Positions 1 to 45,611 of a stretch of DNA of 47,128 nt are shown here, in pieces. A program made the position numbers and the translations under genes. Origin of the DNA: Candidatus Altiarchaeota archaeon (GTDB lineage: Archaea; Altiarchaeota; Altiarchaeia; IMC4; SCGC-AAA252-I15); contig JAZDMS010000013.1 in the NCBI GenBank assembly GCA_043800705.1, positions 1 through 47,128 of the forward strand, given 5' to 3'. The notes under the pieces were generated by a model. It did not search any database. It saw nothing but the letters and a program-made list of their open reading frames with translations, and was not told where the DNA came from. Numbering within the stretch: position 1 is the stretch's first letter; each line of letters begins with the position of its first letter.

Positions 1-503
1 TTGTTTTTGGGTTGTTGAAGACTTTTCGCAGGTGATAGGTCATTGTGGGTAGGGTGTGTAGTAGTCTGTTTCCGATTTTTCTCCTTGCTGGTTTCCAGCA
101 AGGTTCGACAGGGTTGAGTTCTGGGGCGTATTTTGGGAAGCGAAGTATTACGAGGGTTTTTGTATGTCTTGCTTTGAATCCCTCCAAGATTTTCCCTTTG
201 TGCCAGGGTGCGTTATCTACGAAGAGGCATACTCTTCCCCAGCGTTTCAGGAGTTTATCAAGGAATTTGACGTAGGTTCTCTGATTTGTCTTTGTGGAGA
301 ACTGTGCAACAAACGTTTTGGTGCTTCGCGCACCAAAGACGTGGATTCGATCGTATTTGTAGTCCAGTTTGGCGGTGGGTTGTGAGCCTTTCTTTGCCCA
401 ACCGCGCACTACTGTTGGTAGAAGTCCGAATGTGGCTTCGTCCTCTGCTGCAATCACGAATCCTTTCTTGCGCTGAGTTTTCGCCAATTGTGCAGCCTTT
501 TTT
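1..503 (-). CDS. IS630 transposase OrfB (DDE domain), reached by -1 frameshift, partial
   Basis: Manual translation of the -1 frame after TTT AAA AAA AG gives AEDEATFG...LFVDNAPWHK...FPKYAPELNPVEPCWK (DDE triad), open to the window edge. Confidence 0.88.
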
Positions 504-1005
504 TAAAATAGCGTATTTTCGCCTTATTTGGGGCTTGGTAGTTGCGTGGTCTCGGGGTTTGCAGGGAGAACCCTACCCCTATTAAAAGTTCCCAAACATG
601 TTGGTGCGCATATGATACGCCGTATTTTTTGCGGATGAGATCCTGGACTTCCTTTGTTGTCCACAGCCCGGAGGGGTTATTTGGCGGTCCTCTTTCGAGT
701 GTTCGCATGAGTTGTTTCTGTTGGGCTACTGTGAGGCGTGACGGTCTCCCATCTTGCTTGATGCTGTCCTTGCCTTCTATCCCTCTGTCCATGAAACGCC
801 GGAGAGTTTCATGGACTGTCCGGCGTTTCATTCGGGTTTTATCGACAATGTCGTCAAGACTTTTTCCTTCCTTGCGGTGTATGGCGCACAGAAGCCGTAT
901 TTTGGGCTTGACTTTAGGCTCGTTGTTGTACAATCCTCTAAGATGTCCGATACTCGTTTTGGGGAGGAAATCCTCCCCTTTCGGCAGACTCCACATAAAA
1001 CTCAC
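454..1005 (-). CDS. IS630 transposase OrfA (winged HTH domains)
   Basis: GRPSRLT, WTTKEVQDLIRKKYGVSY and GFSLQTPRP motifs typical of the IS630 N-terminus. Confidence 0.9.
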   Translation of the reverse strand: MSFMWSLPKGEDFLPKTSIGHLRGLYNNEPKVKPKIRLLCAIHRKEGKSLDDIVDKTRMKRRTVHETLRRFMDRGIEGKDSIKQDGRPSRLTVAQQKQLMRTLERGPPNNPSGLWTTKEVQDLIRKKYGVSYAHQHVWELLIGVGFSLQTPRPRNYQAPNKAKIRYFKKRLHNWRKLSARKDS

Positions 1006-1061
1006 CGAAACAATATAAGAATAGAAGAATAAAAGTTCAAAAATTAATCTGATGCACTATA

Positions 1062-1114
1062 AGAGGCTCCAGGTGCGGTTTTCTGAAAAACTGCGTTTAC
1101 CCATCATGTTATAT
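1062..1114 (+). repeat. attC-like site 1, right arm only (left arm interrupted by IS630)
   Basis: AACTGCGTTTACCCATCATGTTATAT matches the right arms at 1868-1893 and 2581-2606; GTT at 1108. Confidence 0.65.
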
Positions 1115-1164
1115 TCAATCGCGAGGGGGCAAATGATATTTTATCCCAAATCCATGTTTATTAT

Positions 1165-1698
1165 ATGCTTAAGATTTTTCAAAGAAGTAGGCCACTTATC
1201 GTTCATCTAGGCAATGTGGGCGAGATAGGCGATCCATCAACGATCCCAGATATTTTCCCCTGTAGGGAAACATTTAGACAGGCTAGAGCAGATCTGAAAT
1301 GTGATTTCTTGGGTATTGATTTGAAAGAGTTCCATGTTCATCCAGAAAACGCTAATTGGCGTCAAATCCAGGCAGATTTTATTGAAGGATTAGAAACAGG
1401 AGTTAAGGATAATGGAGCAGATGGCATAGATGCCCAGATGGCAGTAACATACCCTGGGATAGACAGAAAAAAGTTGTTTGATGTTATCCGAAGAAAACTT
1501 AAACCAGGTAAACAATTTACCTTTTCTGTGAGAGAAGAGTATACAGATTCTATTCAACAAGAACTACTAGCGGCAGGCTTTAGTCAAGGCAATATTACCA
1601 TTGAACCGTTCGAGGAAGCTGAGTATAGTAGAACTCAGGCAACTCAAAGGGCAAAAGCTGAGGGCGTAAATCTAATCGATGTGATTGCCAAAAAGTAA
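1165..1698 (+). CDS. Cassette ORF, degenerate class I SAM-dependent methyltransferase-like fold
   Basis: VHLGNVG / FLGIDL / IQADF / RKLKPGKQFTF follow the Rossmann MTase motif order; AT-richer than host genes. Confidence 0.55.
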   Translation: MLKIFQRSRPLIVHLGNVGEIGDPSTIPDIFPCRETFRQARADLKCDFLGIDLKEFHVHPENANWRQIQADFIEGLETGVKDNGADGIDAQMAVTYPGIDRKKLFDVIRRKLKPGKQFTFSVREEYTDSIQQELLAAGFSQGNITIEPFEEAEYSRTQATQRAKAEGVNLIDVIAKK

Positions 1699-1770
1699 AA
1701 GGATGAACTAAATGCGCCCCCTCGCGACTCTTCGTCGGCTTCGCCGCCTCGTCCTCGCTTCGCTCGGAGA

Positions 1771-1893
1771 ATATAACCCGTGGCTAAACGAGCGTATTCT
1801 GCCCCCTGCTGGGGGTTCTTTGCACCCCCAATTCCTGCCATAGTCACTAAATGACGCTCAATCCAGGAACTGCGTTTAGCCACCATGTTATGC
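1771..1893 (+). repeat. attC-like site 2 (123 bp)
   Basis: ATATAAC-CC-GTGGCTAAACG ... CGTTTAGCCAC-CAT-GTTATGC: AAC/GTT ends, 11-bp perfect inner arm, 2x3 internal loop. Confidence 0.8.
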
Positions 1894-1918
1894 GCAATTT
1901 CCGCAGGGAAATACTTCT

Positions 1919-2200
1919 TTAGATCTCTTGATAATCTTTTCCACGATGGAATATTAGAGTTACAAACACTTTCTTTTTTTCAATTCCATACACTGCCCTA
2001 TAATCTCCAACTCGTAGCCGATATGCATGGTCTCTATCCTTAGTGCCAGTCAGTTTTAGTATATCTGCTTTTGGTCGTGGAGTAAAAGGGTCGTCTTCCA
2101 ACTCGGATAATCCATTTTTTATTCTATCCCGTACGGGTTCGGGTAATTTATCGAGGTAAGCTCGAGCTTTTCGATGAACTAACACCTCGAAATTCATCAC
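1919..2200 (-). CDS. RelE/ParE family type II toxin
   Basis: YRLRVGDYRAVY and IFHRGKDY motifs; 93 aa; overlaps the antitoxin stop (GTGA). Confidence 0.92.
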   Translation of the reverse strand: MMNFEVLVHRKARAYLDKLPEPVRDRIKNGLSELEDDPFTPRPKADILKLTGTKDRDHAYRLRVGDYRAVYGIEKKKVFVTLIFHRGKDYQEI

Positions 2201-2388
2201 AAATCACTTAATGGTACGAATTGATCCTTCTCATTTAGCCTTTGATAATGAGTTTCCATAATTTGGGCATGGTCAGCTATTGTTAATAGCTTCCGTATTA
2301 ACATGTCGTAGCTTTCTCCCTTCGTGCCGTAAGATTTCAATATTTCCCTCGTTTCTTTGTGGACCGGAATCATCGCGTAGCTTGCCAT
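2197..2388 (-). CDS. Antitoxin (archaeal RHH-like), start reassigned to ATG 2388
   Basis: MASYAMIPVHKETREILKSYGTKGESYDMLIRKLL; 63 aa directly upstream of relE; sequence further upstream is an AT-rich promoter. Confidence 0.8.
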   Translation of the reverse strand: MASYAMIPVHKETREILKSYGTKGESYDMLIRKLLTIADHAQIMETHYQRLNEKDQFVPLSDL

Positions 2389-2411
2389 AGATATCCCATT
2401 AATTATAATGA

Positions 2412-2427
2412 TTATAACCGTTATAAA
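2412..2427 (-). promoter_or_regulatory. TATA box overlapping a palindromic operator of the TA operon
   Basis: TTATAAC-C-GTTATAA palindrome at 2412-2426; TTTATAA on the minus strand about 33 nt upstream of the antitoxin ATG. Confidence 0.55.
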
Positions 2428-2483
2428 TATTATAGTTTCCCTGCGCAAACTTCCTCGCTACGGCTCGGACCGCTGCGGCGGGC

Positions 2484-2606
2484 GTATAAAAGGCGGCTAA
2501 GCGGGCGTTCGTGGTTCCTTGCCGGGTACGCGGCGCCCCAAATTCCCGCCAAAAGGGGGTCATAGTCAGTCCTTCGCGGGAACTTCGCTTACCCGCGATG
2601 TTATCC
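2484..2606 (+). repeat. attC-like site 3 (123 bp; left core AAA instead of AAC)
   Basis: GTATAAA-AG-GCGGCTAAGCG ... CGCTTACCCGC-GAT-GTTATCC; same length and geometry as site 2; shares AATTCCYGCCA, CATAGTCA and GGAACT. Confidence 0.72.
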
Positions 2607-2663
2607 GACATGCCCGCCGAGCCTTTAACTTGATTAATATTTTCAGCCTTCTAGTCATTATTT

Positions 2664-3683
2664 ATGGCTGGACCCAGCCCAGGTGAAGTTCCACGCGAAG
2701 ACGGATTAAATCGTGATTTAGCGGGAAAAACTCCTCAGATGATGACTACCTTTGCCGAAGTGAGAAAAGGGTGGGGCGCCATCCATAAAGCTGGAATTCG
2801 TCTTTTAGCTTCCGACGGGAGCGAAAAAAATAGTGAGATAGCAGATACTATGATTGAGCCAAATGCTGATAAATTCAACCTTTTGATGAGGCAATTAGGC
2901 TGCGATGATCTCGTTATGACTCGTCTTATAGCTGATGCAGCAAAGGTTGCTAAACCAAGCGATTCGAATAGATATTCTGAGAGACTATTATATTTGGGGG
3001 GATTATTTGATGGGGCAAGGAGGATAGCTGTGAAAATTGGAAATGACCCGTATACTGGCTTACCTGAGCCTCAAAGATTAAAAATAGCCGGACATTTGTT
3101 CAGACCCCCTGAGGAAAGGACATTGACGTGGAATGAACGGGTTGGGATAATGTACCCAAAGATGGCTCTTGACGTATTGGATGGGACTTGTAACCCGGAG
3201 GAGATTTATGAGGTTAGTGGGAGAGGATTGGGCAGAATTGTTAGAACTGTCATTGAGGCAGGACCATTGAATCCATCCCCAAAAGGATTCGCAGTTGATG
3301 AGGCCTGGAAGGCCAAAGGCTGGGGGGATTTTGTGGATATGATGCCGATTCCCGAGGATCTGGAAGACATACGCAAAACACAAAAGGAAAAACGGCAATA
3401 CAAACCTCTTGAAAAGCATGAAGAATCCTTCAAAGGTTATTTACCCCACTATAATTGCCCGGAGGCAATTGAATACATTATACGGGACGTAGTCAACTAT
3501 ATGAGTACTGGACTTCCCCAAGAAAAAGAAGAACGGAATTTGGATAAAATCGTTGGTGAAGCGCTAAAAGTAATGCCTCATAGAAAAAGACTCGAGGAAC
3601 TAGACTATTTCCATGAGAAAAAGACTGAAGGAGAAAGACATAACATGCTCCAAAACATATTCGAAGGAAGGGCTTTATTCTAA
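2664..3683 (+). CDS. Hypothetical protein (cassette 3 cargo, 339 aa)
   Basis: Long AT-richer ORF with no recognised motif, framed by a 15-bp inverted repeat. Confidence 0.75.
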   Translation: MAGPSPGEVPREDGLNRDLAGKTPQMMTTFAEVRKGWGAIHKAGIRLLASDGSEKNSEIADTMIEPNADKFNLLMRQLGCDDLVMTRLIADAAKVAKPSDSNRYSERLLYLGGLFDGARRIAVKIGNDPYTGLPEPQRLKIAGHLFRPPEERTLTWNERVGIMYPKMALDVLDGTCNPEEIYEVSGRGLGRIVRTVIEAGPLNPSPKGFAVDEAWKAKGWGDFVDMMPIPEDLEDIRKTQKEKRQYKPLEKHEESFKGYLPHYNCPEAIEYIIRDVVNYMSTGLPQEKEERNLDKIVGEALKVMPHRKRLEELDYFHEKKTEGERHNMLQNIFEGRALF

Positions 3684-3835
3684 CAAAATTGCCGGCTCGG
3701 CGGGCATGCTCCTTCGCTTCGCTCAGTCGACCCATAAAATGTAAGCACACAGCAAAAAGAAAAAGTCCTAAGGAACGCGGCTAGACTGGGATTCTCTGTT
3801 GTTGGGGGGGTTCTGTATGTTCGTCTTTGTCTGAG

Positions 3836-3875
3836 GAAAAAACGCTGTTGGTAGGCGTTTTTTGAGGCGCCTACC
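3836..3875 (-). terminator. Hairpin/T-rich terminator region downstream of the thermosome gene
   Basis: GGTAGGCG...CGCCTACC and AAAAAACGC...GCGTTTTTT overlapping inverted repeats just past the stop codon. Confidence 0.4.
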
Positions 3876-3887
3876 GTATAGGGGTTT

Positions 3888-5534
3888 TTACATCATTCCG
3901 CCCATGCCGCCCATTCCTCCGGGTGGCATTCCTCCGGGTGGCATTCCTCCGCCGCCGGATTTTTTGGTGGCGATGACGTCGTCTATCCTCAGGATCATCT
4001 CCGCTGCCTCTGATGCGCTTTGTACTGCCTGGGTCTTGATCTTCAAGGGTTCGATGACGCCTTTTTTCCACATGTCTTCGACGGAGGCTTCTTCGACGTT
4101 GACTCCGTAGTCTTGTCCGTTTTTGGTCTCGTGCTTCTGCCGGAGTTTCACGAGGGTGTCGATGGCGTCCATGCCTGCGGATTCGGCCAACGTCCGGGGT
4201 ATTATTTCGATGGCGTCTGCGAAGGCGTTGACTGCGAGTTGTTCGCGGCCGCCCACTGAGTCCGCGTATTTCCTTAGTTTCTGTGCGACTTCGGCTTCTG
4301 GTGCGCCGCCGCCTGCCATTATGTAGCCGACTTCGACCGCGGCTGCGACGCCTCCGAGGGCGTCGTTGAGTGCGCGTTCTACTTCGTCGATGACGTGTTC
4401 GGTGCCGCCGCGTACGAAGATGCTGACTGCTTTGGGGTTCTTGCATCCGCGGACGAATGTCATCTGGTCGCCTGCGACTTTGATTTCTTCGACGAGTTTG
4501 GCCTGGCCTAGGTCGTCTTTGCTTAGGTCTTTTAGGTTGGTTATTATCTTGGCGCCTGTGGCTTTGGCCATCTTTTCCATGTCGGATTTTTTGACCCTTC
4601 TTGCGGCGAATATGCCGGCTTTGTTGAGGAAGTGCTGTGCGAGGTCGTCTATGCCTTTCTGGCAGAAGAGGACGTTGGCGCCTGTGGCTGTGACGGAGTC
4701 GACCATCTGTTTGAGCATCTTCTCTTCCTGTGCTACGAAGGCTTCCAGCTGTTGCGGGCTTGTGATGGATATCTCGGCGTCTGTTTCGGTCTCTTTGACT
4801 TCGATGGCGACGTCGAGGAGCACTATCTTGGCGTTTTCGACCTTTTTGGGCATGCCGGAGTGTGAGCGTTCCTTGTCGATTATGATGCCTTCGATGAGTT
4901 CTGTGTCTTCGATGCTGCCGCCTTTCTTCTTTTCGACCTGGATGTTGTCGAGGTCTACGTCGACGCCTTCTTCGAGGGCTGCGACCTGCTTGACGGCTTT
5001 GACTGTCAGCTTTGCTAGCTTGTTTTTGTGCGATTCGACGCCTTTGCCTGTCATCGAGGTGATGGCTATCTCCTCGAGTAGCTTGGTGTCTTCGAGCGTT
5101 ACCTTCTTTGATGTCTCCTTCAGTATCTCCTGGGTCTTGTCCGCTGCAAGCTTGTATCCGCGCGCTATCAGCGTCGGGTGTATGCCCTGGTCGAGGAGTC
5201 CTTCGGCTTTCGCCAGGAGTTCGCCGACGAGTATTACTGCGGTCGTCGTTCCGTCTCCGACTTCCTTGTCCTGCGTCTTGGCTACTTCGATGACCATCTT
5301 CGCCGCGGGGTGTTCGACGTTCATCTCCTCGACGATTGTGGCTCCGTCGTTTGTGATGACGATGTCTCCTAGGTCGTCTACGAGCATCTTGTCCATTCCG
5401 CGCGGTCCGAGTGTGCTTCTTACGGCCTCTGCGACGGCTTTTGCCGCCATGATGTTGTTTCGTTGGGCGTCTCTGCCTGTGGTCCTTAGCGCCCCTTCGG
5501 GCAGTATAAATATCTGCGGTTGCTGTTGTGCCAT
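3888..5534 (-). CDS. ths: Thermosome subunit (group II chaperonin)
   Basis: [24 protein letters not shown] motifs; C-terminal GGMPP repeats; SD GAGGTGA. Confidence 0.98.
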
Positions 5535-15267: not shown

Positions 15268-16176
15268 ATGTTGCCAGCTGATTTTAAGGCGGTACTTTCA
15301 AGACAGCATTACGGCATCGTCGGCGGACACAGCGCCGTGAAGCCGTGCCTGTGGCTGAAGAAGGCGGTCCGCGGGGAGGGCTTCTGCTACAAGCAGAAGT
15401 TCTATGGGATAGAGAGCCACAGGTGCATGCAGATGACGCCTGCGGTCGGCTGGTGCGCGCACAGGTGCCTCTTCTGCTGGAGGAACACTGAGTATACCCT
15501 GGGGCAGTCCATGGATTCATGGGACGAGCCTGAGGGTATCATAGATGGGGCGATCGGGGCCCACCGGCAGGCGGTGTCCGGCTTCAGGGGGCTTGGAGTC
15601 GATGAGCGGCTCTTCCAGGAGGCGAGGAAGCCGAAGCATGTGGCGATAAGCCTTGCCGGGGAGCCGACCGCATATCCTCCCCTTGGGGATCTGATCTCTG
15701 GATTCAAGAGGAGGGGGATGACGACGTATCTTGTGACGAATGGGACGCTGCCGGAGAGGCTCGAGGCTCTCAAGACATTGCCTACCCAGCTTTATCTCTC
15801 TGTCGTGGCGCCGGATGAGGAGACTTATGCGAGGGTCTGCAAGCCCGCGTTCCCTGACGGCTGGGAGAGGATTGGCAGGACGCTCGATCTTCTTCCGTCG
15901 ATCGGGACGAAGAAGGTCGTCAGGATCACGGCAGTCAAGGGCCTTAACATGTTCGATCCCGCGGGCTATGCGAGGCTCATCGAGAAGGCACAGCCGGATT
16001 TCGTCGAGGTGAAGGCGTTCATGTTCGTGGGAGGCTCCCGCAACCGTCTCTCCCAGGACAACATGCCGTCTCATGGGGAGGTCGTCTCCTTCGCCAGGGA
16101 AGTGGGCGACGAACTTTCGTATGTCCTCAAGGATGAGAAGGAGGATTCGAGGGTCGCGCTCCTTGGCCGCGCCTAG
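15268..16176 (+). CDS. taw1: 4-demethylwyosine synthase (radical SAM, TYW1/Taw1)
   Basis: HSAVKPCLW, CYKQKFYGIESHRC, CxxxCxxC (CAHRCLFC), HVAISLAGEPT. Confidence 0.95.
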   Translation: MLPADFKAVLSRQHYGIVGGHSAVKPCLWLKKAVRGEGFCYKQKFYGIESHRCMQMTPAVGWCAHRCLFCWRNTEYTLGQSMDSWDEPEGIIDGAIGAHRQAVSGFRGLGVDERLFQEARKPKHVAISLAGEPTAYPPLGDLISGFKRRGMTTYLVTNGTLPERLEALKTLPTQLYLSVVAPDEETYARVCKPAFPDGWERIGRTLDLLPSIGTKKVVRITAVKGLNMFDPAGYARLIEKAQPDFVEVKAFMFVGGSRNRLSQDNMPSHGEVVSFAREVGDELSYVLKDEKEDSRVALLGRA

Positions 16177-45157: not shown

Positions 45158-45611
45158 TCAAGGACGAGGAGCAGATCGAAATCCATATTAACAATTGAAA
45201 AATGCGGTTTAAATGCTTCTGCGCTTCGCTTAGCCTAGGTTCAACATGGTTTATCGGCTTTCTCCCGAGGAATACGACAGCAGGATAAGGCTCGAAGTCA
45301 ACCCGAAGCCGAGCAAGACCGTAAGGACGCCGCACGTAATAGTGCGCTTAAACGATATCAGTGACGAGTCCCCACCATAGCTGCTAAGCCCCCACAAATG
45401 ATGATCCATATCAGTCATCGCAGTCTAACTCGAAGACTATATCCGCACAATCGTAGAACACGTCCAAAGTGGGAGTGACCATGAGAGGAATAAGACTAAC
45501 CTGCATTACTTAAAAAATAGTTTTCTCGCTTACGCTCGATAATCCAGAATTTTAGTTTAACGCAACTGGTTATCTAGCTTGTTGCAAAAAAGACACCGCA
45601 CCATAATCTGG

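Follow-up and report, generated by a model that had tools for sequence, protein, structure and literature searches.

Cassette-specific inverted repeats as arms of an additional outer helix of integron-type attC sites in a Candidatus Altiarchaeota genome

By definition, integron attC sites extend no further than the R box, and it is this core on which detection models and assays are based; the textbook site measures 57-141 bp, and its unpaired features are extrahelical bases, an unpaired central spacer and a variable terminal structure, which mark the bottom strand as the one that recombines in classical integrons (PMC5027507; this and the other papers are cited for the accessible parts of their text). 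Long attC sites of the VCR (Vibrio cholerae repeat) type in sedentary chromosomal integrons are similar to one another within a genome, and their folding together with cassette length governs excision (PMC5371416). Clusters of attC sites lacking integron integrases (CALINs) have been described from archaea, where arrays without an integrase were the rule in the published survey (PMC9668308). The origin of cassettes has been treated so far through models, such as the group IIC-attC intron model, in which gene and attC are separate units that are joined later (Leon and Roy, 2009, as cited in PMC3053210). Here, we analyzed a stretch of 47,128 nucleotides (nt) from a Candidatus Altiarchaeota archaeon (contig JAZDMS010000013.1, positions 1-47,128, assembly GCA_043800705.1), the whole of which is referred to as the window. 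Three short units in its left 3.8 kb form a cassette array in which each cargo is enclosed by its own inverted repeat. The arms of these repeats are the two halves of an additional outer stem, designated P0, of an unusually large, branched integron-type site.

An original prediction, made by a model from the letters of the window, had placed an inverted repeat around each cargo, and all three pairs were recovered. Cassette 1 carries TCGCGAGGGGGC (1119-1130) and GCCCCCTCGCGA (1716-1727), which are complementary at 12 of 12 positions, cassette 2 carries TTTCCGCAGGGAAA (1898-1911) and TTTCCCTGCGCAAA (2436-2449) with 13 of 14 positions and a perfect 10-nt core, and cassette 3 carries CATGCCCGCCGAGCC (2609-2623) and GGCTCGGCGGGCATG (3694-3708) with 15 of 15. 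A second array with five sites was found in the same genome (G000) on the minus strand of contig C35, from about 76350 to 70500 (labels beginning with G, C and L are our names for genomes, contigs and loci). All four C35 cassettes showed a repeat (13/13, 13/13, 13/13 and 12/13, read by eye), which means that the repeat was present in 7/7 cassettes of G000 with both ends identifiable.

The repeats around each gene cassette are real and statistically solid. A cassette was taken as a pair of neighboring sites, and the 30 or 45 nt after the upstream R′ were compared with the 90 nt before the downstream R″ in a sample of 31 cassettes, drawn from G000, from seven related genomes (nine loci) and from six metagenome contigs. 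Perfect repeats of at least 9 nt were present in 16/31 cognate end pairs compared to 16/930 non-cognate pairs, and perfect repeats of at least 12 nt in 12/31 compared to 2/930. Mean duplex energy was -15.5 kcal/mol for cognate and -9.3 kcal/mol for non-cognate ends, the observed mean being reached by 0 of 20000 permutations, and the best duplex partner was the cognate end in 20 of the 31 cassettes. Strong non-cognate pairs were mostly A+T-rich cargo matches; two of them were window cassette 2 against its homologue in L142. Pairing between the two flanks of one and the same site was at background level across 44 sites (strongest -15.6 kcal/mol, gapped), and unsplit modules, with both arms around a single site, were found in none of these 44.

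Further sites were searched for with a covariance model of the site (R1), which gave matches at E ≤0.001 in 17 of 61 related genomes, G000 included. The 61 genomes represent the whole group up to phylum level in the genome collection, and searches at class and phylum level added no arrays. An exact-pattern scan of metagenome contigs gave 54 loci, of which 14 had model matches (24 in total; L162, which repeats L119, was excluded). The same kind of scan of genome contigs gave 25 loci with one match at E <0.01 (L008, labelled Candidatus Woesearchaeota) and two others listed at E 0.8 and 0.92; the rough chance expectation for the genome-contig pattern, with 17 specified bases, is about 70 matches.

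Window positions 1040-3790 are the end of an integron-type cassette array without an integrase nearby, i.e., a CALIN in an archaeal genome. The L′-R′ box CTKCGYTTASCCRYSATGTTAT was found at 1091, 1870 and 2583 (chance expectation 0.00), and each unit begins just past it. The copies at 1870 and 2583 form the 3′ ends of attC-shaped sites of about 127 nt, which are bounded by ATAAC and GTTAT and contain a paired L box as well as an inner three-way junction. ATAAC and GTTAT, which agree with the inverse core RYYYAAC and the core GTTRRRY, were conserved in six G000 sites, one R″ being degenerate (GCGTATAAA). The RNAalifold consensus of these six sites showed an imperfect R-box/L-box hairpin of 32 pairs, 12 of which had compensated changes, with a 1x2 asymmetric loop between the R and L boxes, a 1x1 L-box mismatch and no clear extrahelical G or T; asymmetry between the strands comes from other features. 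Arrays of at least two sites located less than 4 kb apart and split by short open reading frames (ORFs), the measure used in PMC9668308, were present in the window (sites at 1108, 1887 and 2600), on C35 (five sites) and in L064 (seven sites).

The R box comprises 9 bp, and its outer four bases vary between cassettes. The outer four R′ bases (after GTTAn) were fully complementary to R″ of the downstream site in 13/23 cassettes, whereas they matched R″ of their own site in 5/44 sites and R″ of unrelated sites in 24/506 pairs. In the window, R′ at 1108-1116 is complementary along its full length to R″ of cassette 1 (GAATATAAC, 1769-1777). Because the outer R′ bases match the downstream R″ and not that of their own site, the crossover is of integron type, at G/TT, and the first bases of a cassette had at one time been connected to the end of its own attC, in a circle.

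P0 was found in a fixed register. A perfect helix of at least 7 bp starting at the third base after the R′ box was present in 15/31 cassettes compared to 12/930 non-cognate pairs. Because of this register, P0 directly extends the R-box helix on the R′ side. AAT directly follows the R′ box in 32/44 sites, and the right arm is followed by CT. The junction of the 15 registered cassettes reads AAT/ACT in 12 and CAT/ACG in three, i.e., the first pair covaries from A-T to C-G, and at the second position an A is opposite a C in 15/15. An exception outside this set is window cassette 3, in which A2610 pairs normally with T3707.

On the other side, the right arm is separated from R″ by an insert of 18-62 nt. 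The 60 nt upstream of the sites contain 33% C and 26% T on the top strand; the insert opens with ACTCT or ACTTC in 24/43 sites (shuffle mean 5.6), and TCGG or TCGC is present within its last 6 nt in 27/43. A hairpin of the pattern YY-TC-stem-loop-stem-TC-RR was found in 25/64 sites, compared to a mean of 0.12 and a maximum of 2 in shuffles and none in the reverse complement. These hairpins had 13 distinct stems, and the outer pairs were CC/GG in 20, CT/AG in four and TC/GA in one. The motif which had been noticed after each right repeat of the window (1753-1767, 2453-2468 and 3712-3726) corresponds to this hairpin, its third copy having the CT/AG form by reading and lying outside the 64 scanned sites. 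As a plain string the motif did not stand: CKCTTCGCTCRG with at most one mismatch gave three matches compared to 1.34 expected, at least three were obtained in 13/100 shuffles, and the match at 45222 was unrelated. The significance of the string was rejected with a count near chance, and the structural pattern was used instead.

The recombination module of each cassette measures about 190-240 nt and exceeds a textbook attC in size. On the circular cassette, it starts with the right arm of P0 (about 10-17 bp, cassette-specific), followed by the conserved joint A(A)CT, the insert of about 20-60 nt with one or two mini-hairpins, one of which has the conserved TC/TC internal loops, and the 9-bp R″, and ends with the L box and the inner three-way junction, the 9-bp R′, AAT and the left arm of P0. 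The G/TT crossover inside R′ splits this module into a short piece (TTAnnnnn-AAT-left arm) that opens the cassette and a long piece that closes it. Cargo is seemingly enclosed by its own inverted repeat because recombination at G/TT cuts the module.

P0 is part of the site rather than of the cargo, because related arms go with unrelated cargo and differ by compensated changes. One lineage of arms, named after CATGCC, has the left arm CATGCCCGCCGAGCC in window cassette 3, CATGCCTGCCAAGTT in C35 cassette C, CATGCCCGCCGAGTT in L067 and CATGCCTGCTGAGTT in L138, a metagenome contig. In three of the four copies, each left-arm change had its counterpart on the right arm, and L067 had one uncompensated position. 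BLASTP of the cargo ORFs showed no likeness between C35 cassette C and L067, nor between C35 cassette B and L067-4731, a pair belonging to a second arm lineage (the comparison covered neither window cassette 3 nor L138). Similarity between C35 cassette C and its L067 relative, and between C35 cassette C and window cassette 3, ends near the outer arm edge. A close homologue of window cassette 2 in L142 showed 14/14 complementary arm positions with a G in place of C1901, and C1901 is a derived mismatch because the homologue pairs throughout. In L126, a metagenome contig, a cassette on the reverse strand (1429-1524) has 95 nt between the boxes; since only arms, a 29-nt A+T-rich loop and the insert are present, with no ORF, it is a module without a gene. 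The R-box halves of this cassette are not complementary, and its arms are.

Contigs from public sequencing runs showed the cassette 3 right arm and motif beside other sequence and the cassette 2 end joined to a different attC interior; these contigs are short and give a hint only. None of the public runs contains the stretch (shares 0.05-0.07). Contigs of four runs contained the toxin-antitoxin cassette and module pieces in other contexts, and no circle junction and no inversion joint was found in them; contigs miss rare forms, so this null result says nothing on activity. In contig 10 of run X2, the toxin-antitoxin cassette end, insert, R″ and L″ of window 2194-2505 continue into a different attC interior like that of C35 cassette C. 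These sequences suggest that attC sites may be mosaic.

For each cassette, the 3′ and 5′ ends were joined in silico, as in the circle, and folded with DNA parameters, all predictions being for naked DNA. The circularized junctions were predicted to form a multibranch fold closed at the junction by P0, with one or two mini-hairpins as side branches and the R box stacked beside P0; the idea that the arms close a branched junction around attC in the circularized cassette is borne out by these in silico folds only. For window cassette 1, the fold was -46.3 kcal/mol in the circle compared to -37.5 kcal/mol for the same attC in the array context. Whole cassettes with both flanking sites were also folded as single strands. 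The arms paired across 580-1000 nt in three of four, i.e., the cargo is predicted to loop out from the arm pairing as had been proposed, and did not in the fourth; pairing of the upstream R′ with the downstream R″ was obtained for both strands of two cassettes and for a single strand of each remaining one. For the circular module, predicted stability was higher on the bottom than on the top strand in 29/31 cassettes, with a mean difference of 3.6 kcal/mol. A top-strand A opposite C corresponds to a bottom-strand G opposite T, and top-strand TC/TC to bottom-strand GA/GA. Tandem G.A pairs are known to be stable, and it is on the bottom strand alone that stability would be expected of the conserved non-Watson-Crick features.

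The arrays resemble canonical attC sites and CALINs in the inverse core ATAAC, the core GTTAT, the L″/L′ pairing and the predicted higher stability of the bottom strand, as well as in tandem sites less than 4 kb apart split by short ORFs and in cassette-specific R-box halves with a G/TT crossover. They differ from the textbook attC by the helix outside the R box, the structured insert on the R″ side, the 9-bp R box and the lack of obvious extrahelical bases. In aadA1 of plasmid R100, the sole classical cassette compared, the 7-nt core is followed after 4 nt by the start codon, the stop codon ends 1 nt before R″, and the flanks match at 6/16 positions by eye; there is no room for an outer helix in this cassette because the gene fills it. 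The original prediction had held that standard attC descriptions include no such layer, which fits the accessible parts of PMC5027507, PMC5371416, PMC3053210 and PMC9668308, where a helix outside the R box, cassette-spanning repeats and a structured insert are not mentioned; the main text of PMC9668308 contains no occurrence of "inverted repeat", "hairpin" or "R box". Like VCR-type sites, the present sites are long and similar to one another within the genome, but the extra length and branching of VCR-type sites are described inside the site, as variable terminal structure, and not outside the R box; an outer helix may have been overlooked in bacterial chromosomal arrays. As in the group IIC-attC model, one module lineage carries unrelated cargo, but no reverse transcriptase or intron was found beside the arrays or in attC-rich genomes, and the model predicts no cargo-spanning repeat. 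The pdif modules of Acinetobacter plasmids are gene modules bounded by inversely oriented Xer-type tyrosine recombinase sites. The only tyrosine recombinases found here are XerA-like; however, the inverted pdif sites are shared recombinase sites, whereas the arms described here are cassette-specific, and what the cassettes share is the site between them. Among integron attC sites, the present ones are best classed as a new structural variant, i.e., an extended branched module in an archaeal lineage.

The outer helix means that the boundaries of site, cassette and "non-coding" cassette ends are misdrawn for these arrays. A fold for which the excised circle is predicted to be far more favorable than the array context would cause a simple physical bias between capture and loss. 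Besides, a discrete, sharp-edged site that recurs with unrelated genes, and once without a gene, provides a handle on how cassettes arise.

The failure to find an integron integrase in the 61 related genomes raises the question of the acting enzyme. TIGR02249 gave no match over its 265-bit cut-off in any of them and no complete integron was found, the genomes being incomplete (87.55% for G000). The single Phage_integrase match in G000 at search threshold was a 283-aa open frame on contig C17, which matched the integron-integrase model in two separate parts with the model middle unmatched and reads as an Xer-like protein by its sequence. The best candidates were XerA-like tyrosine recombinases in five other genomes of the group (L108 699-1757, L106 1195-2268, L105 1252-2268), which measure about 350 aa and are extended N-terminally by about 70 aa. 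Two of these were scanned and passed the XerA model NF040815 (237-242 bits, cut-off 220) but missed the integron-integrase model (220-229 bits). The presence of these proteins does not correlate with arrays, which were found in one of the five genomes. Among ORFs of at least 90 aa scanned upstream of the arrays in L064 (six ORFs) and L067 (three ORFs) there was no recombinase, and five bacterial genomes reached via pattern-scan loci showed split, sub-threshold integrase matches only. A co-occurring HUH nuclease or reverse transcriptase, as had been envisaged, was not found to track the arrays: the Y1 HUH transposase PF01797 was present in 18/61 genomes and absent from the array-holding G000, G015 and G011, and no reverse transcriptase was found in these three or in G018 and G020. 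In G018, a Y1 (IS200/IS605-type) transposase gene (contig C37, 16560-16907) is located about 480 nt from an attC at 15969-16081.

We consider it fairly likely, with a probability of roughly 60%, that P0 has a selected structural role in recombination, as a helix of the folded single-stranded (bottom-strand) site. The evidence consists of the anatomy with its statistical support, the G/TT crossover signature, the inheritance of arms with the site, the compensated arm changes and the strand asymmetry of the conserved mismatches. P0 would stack on the R box and would clamp and insulate the folded attC in the excised circle; because the arms are contiguous with attC only in that circle, it is at the capture stage that P0 would stabilize and insulate the recombinogenic fold. 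In the single-stranded array, the arms could zip the two ends of a cassette together and thereby juxtapose both crossover points. For some site pairs, longer cassettes are excised less often, which is suggested to reflect a need for both sites to fold on one single-stranded stretch (PMC5371416); the arms would remove this dependence on cassette length.

Several points weigh against such a role. A terminal repeat in every cassette, as originally predicted, held for G000 and not for the wider sample, in which 15/31 cassettes had no perfect repeat of at least 9 nt. Two of these 15 are C35 cassettes in which repeats are visible by eye, and which the automatic windows miss because insertion sequence (IS) elements of the IS110 family have inserted, one in the attC and one between GTT and the left arm. 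Several cassettes of more distant families (L073, L077, L065 4886 and L075) showed no repeat by eye, and the outer helix is therefore not strictly required for this class of sites. One of the four whole-cassette folds lacked long-range arm pairing, the energy difference between the strands depends on the DNA parameter set, and the folds are thermodynamic predictions for naked DNA. Across the 61 genomes of the group, no integrase exceeds the TIGR02249 cut-off. Moreover, nine archaeal attC sites made from annealed primer pairs recombined with IntI1 in Escherichia coli as well as a bacterial site did (PMC9668308); these sites may or may not be of the present family, and the oligonucleotides may or may not have reached into the arms.

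The arms might alternatively be a footprint of cassette birth, left from the first joining of gene and attC and without present function, for example where a palindrome downstream of a gene took up an attC or an empty module took up a gene in its end loop. The module-cargo boundary at the outer arm edge, the ORF-less L126 cassette with its 29-nt loop, and the occurrence of one module lineage with unrelated cargo, as expected if modules capture genes, are consistent with this, and gene and attC have already been viewed as independent units (PMC3053210 citing Leon and Roy). However, compensated changes on both arms and the conserved A.C with its covarying neighbor suggest that pairing has remained under selection; searches of G000, G015, G011, G018 and G020 revealed no reverse transcriptase, and the arms are not the terminator of the cargo because they do not follow it. 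The related arms with unrelated cargo and the compensated changes speak likewise against a cassette-making footprint that belongs to the cargo, which had been one of the functional guesses. We regard a birth footprint without function as doubtful; footprints of birth are compatible with a selected role of P0 rather than opposed to it. A similarly doubtful, more far-reaching idea is that the module of about 200 nt (outer helix, GA-loop hairpins and attC) might be a self-contained single-stranded DNA element that takes up genes in the outer-helix loop, served by a XerA-type recombinase and a factor reading the GA-loop hairpins. If true, the arrays would expose an unknown cassette-making step and a second enzyme system for attC-like sites. 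It is unlikely that P0 serves instead as a lock of the array, in which R′, aided by P0, pairs with R″ of the next site and is withheld from its own hairpin, so that excision is suppressed and sedentary arrays are stabilized. The predicted pairing of upstream R′ with downstream R″ described above would fit, as would the R box of a site being only partly complementary within arrays (all four outer nt match in 5/44). This lock is a prediction, however; the same geometry could equally promote synapsis of the flanking sites, and two folded sites on one single-stranded stretch likely favor excision (PMC5371416).

An RNA element, in which a bottom-strand or cassette transcript folds alike and its ends pair for stability or processing, was judged improbable. 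G.U and tandem G.A pairs are also stable in RNA, and the conserved non-Watson-Crick features cannot separate DNA from bottom-sense RNA, but the arms come to lie in a single cassette only through a crossover of DNA, by which the module is split. Besides, the relation of arms and attC is constant whatever the cargo direction, the largest ORF being on the minus strand in 7/23 cassettes, which disagrees with the earlier suggestion of RNA end-pairing, and Rfam gave a sole match in window 1-4200, far from a family assignment (E 0.98, 17.8 bits compared to a gathering score of 44). Inversion of cargo between the arms had likewise been proposed. The cargo of window cassette 2 is inverted while a related toxin-antitoxin pair is forward in L064 (cassette from 7764, plus strand), and reversed cargo is as frequent as the 7/23 above; however, toxin-antitoxin cassettes are commonly reversed in integrons, and the two pairs, the sole homologous cargo in opposite orientation, are 37.5% identical and have different arms, which is not a recent flip. 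No strand-changing joint was found in the four runs (contigs only, low power), arms of 10-17 bp are short for homologous inversion, and we consider an inversion signal highly improbable. Chance or an assembly artefact, for which only the small size of each single repeat could be cited, is negligible, since the layer was found in independent assemblies (two G000 contigs, nine loci of seven other genomes and six metagenome contigs) and is refuted as chance by the cognate versus non-cognate statistics. In summary of the original prediction, its structural inference is supported by the in silico models, and its functional guesses mostly are not.

The features of the array are listed in Table 1. 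The array is flanked by an IS630-family element on one side and by a gene at 3888-5534 (minus strand) on the other, which we take to be a thermosome gene from reading its translation. The 5′ half of the first attC is replaced by the IS630-family element (window 2-1040), inside which the contig begins, and the array probably continues on another contig. The cassette 2 cargo matched ParE_toxin (3.8e-08) and, for the antitoxin, DUF7557 at 20.0 bits, under its 25-bit cut-off. At the other end, comparison with C35, L126 and a loose end in public run X2 showed 3734-3786 to be a decayed array end, because the remainder of that attC is missing.

Table 1. Features of the cassette array and its left flank (window coordinates; R1, covariance model of the site).
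Feature	Position	Strand	Details
IS630-family insertion sequence	2-1005	-	ORFs 454-1005 helix-turn-helix (HTH) and 2-487 DDE_3; Pfam HTH_33/HTH_32 and DDE_3
attC-0 remnant (3′ half)	1040-1116	+	L′-R′ box 1091-1112; 9-nt R′ box GTTATATTC 1108-1116; crossover G1108/T1109
Cassette 1	1109-1887	+	Cargo ORF 1165-1698, 177 aa, no Pfam family
Cassette 1, P0 left arm	1117-1130	+	AAT plus TCGCGAGGGGGC
Cassette 1, P0 right arm	1716-1729	+	GCCCCCTCGCGA plus CT; A1118 opposite C1728 (A.C mismatch)
Cassette 1, insert between P0 and R box	1730-1768	+	Mini-hairpin CGGCTTCGCCG 1736-1746; TC/TC-loop hairpin CCTCGCTTCGCTCGG 1753-1767 (motif of the original prediction)
Cassette 1, attC core	1769-1895	+	R″, L″, inner three-way junction, L′, R′ GTTATGCGC 1887-1895; R1 115.2 bits
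Cassette 2	1888-2600	+	Minus-strand cargo: ParE toxin 1919-2200, antitoxin within 2197-2448
Cassette 2, P0 left arm	1896-1911	+	AAT plus TTCCGCAGGGAAA; C1901 mismatched
Cassette 2, P0 right arm	2436-2451	+	TTTCCCTGCGCAAA plus CT
Cassette 2, insert	2452-2481	+	TC/TC-loop hairpin CCTCGCTACGGCTCGG 2453-2468
Cassette 2, attC core	2482-2608	+	Degenerate R″ GCGTATAAA; R′ GTTATCCGA 2600-2608; R1 129.6 bits
Cassette 3	2601-3733	+	Cargo ORF 2664-3683, 339 aa, no Pfam family; own attC decayed
Cassette 3, P0 left arm	2609-2623	+	CATGCCCGCCGAGCC
Cassette 3, P0 right arm	3694-3708	+	GGCTCGGCGGGCATG
Cassette 3, insert start	3709-3733	+	Hairpin CTTCGCTTCGCTCAG 3712-3726, outer pair C-G to T-A; broken R″ region next
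Decayed last attC	3734-3786	+	About 42 nt (3734-3775) like the right end of an IS110-family element intact in a C35 attC; L″-like GCGGCTAGAC 3777-3786

The C35 array (L033) contains two IS110-family elements (about 74440-73300 and 72320-71190), the transposases of which are 30% identical to each other. One was found inside an attC just after R″ and the other a few nt past an R′ box, and from these positions the elements look as if they target attC site-specifically. Site-specific attC targeting is known from the IS1111-attC group of IS110-family elements, and the IS110 bridge-RNA recombinases are also among the nearest known systems for them. The likeness lies in IS110-family elements in or beside C35 attCs and a remnant in the last attC of the window; the difference is that these elements parasitize the site and are not part of the repeat layer. 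An attC subfamily in L073 and L077 (and L132 and L109), without clear outer arms, has another conserved block, CCTTCGRCATCGTTGCACTAAAA or GGGACGTTGCACT, within 60 nt upstream of R″. The first C35 site (about 76420-76341, minus strand) is a short variant missed by the model, which contains ATAAC, L″-like and L′-like boxes, an extra perfect 12-bp hairpin and GTTAT.

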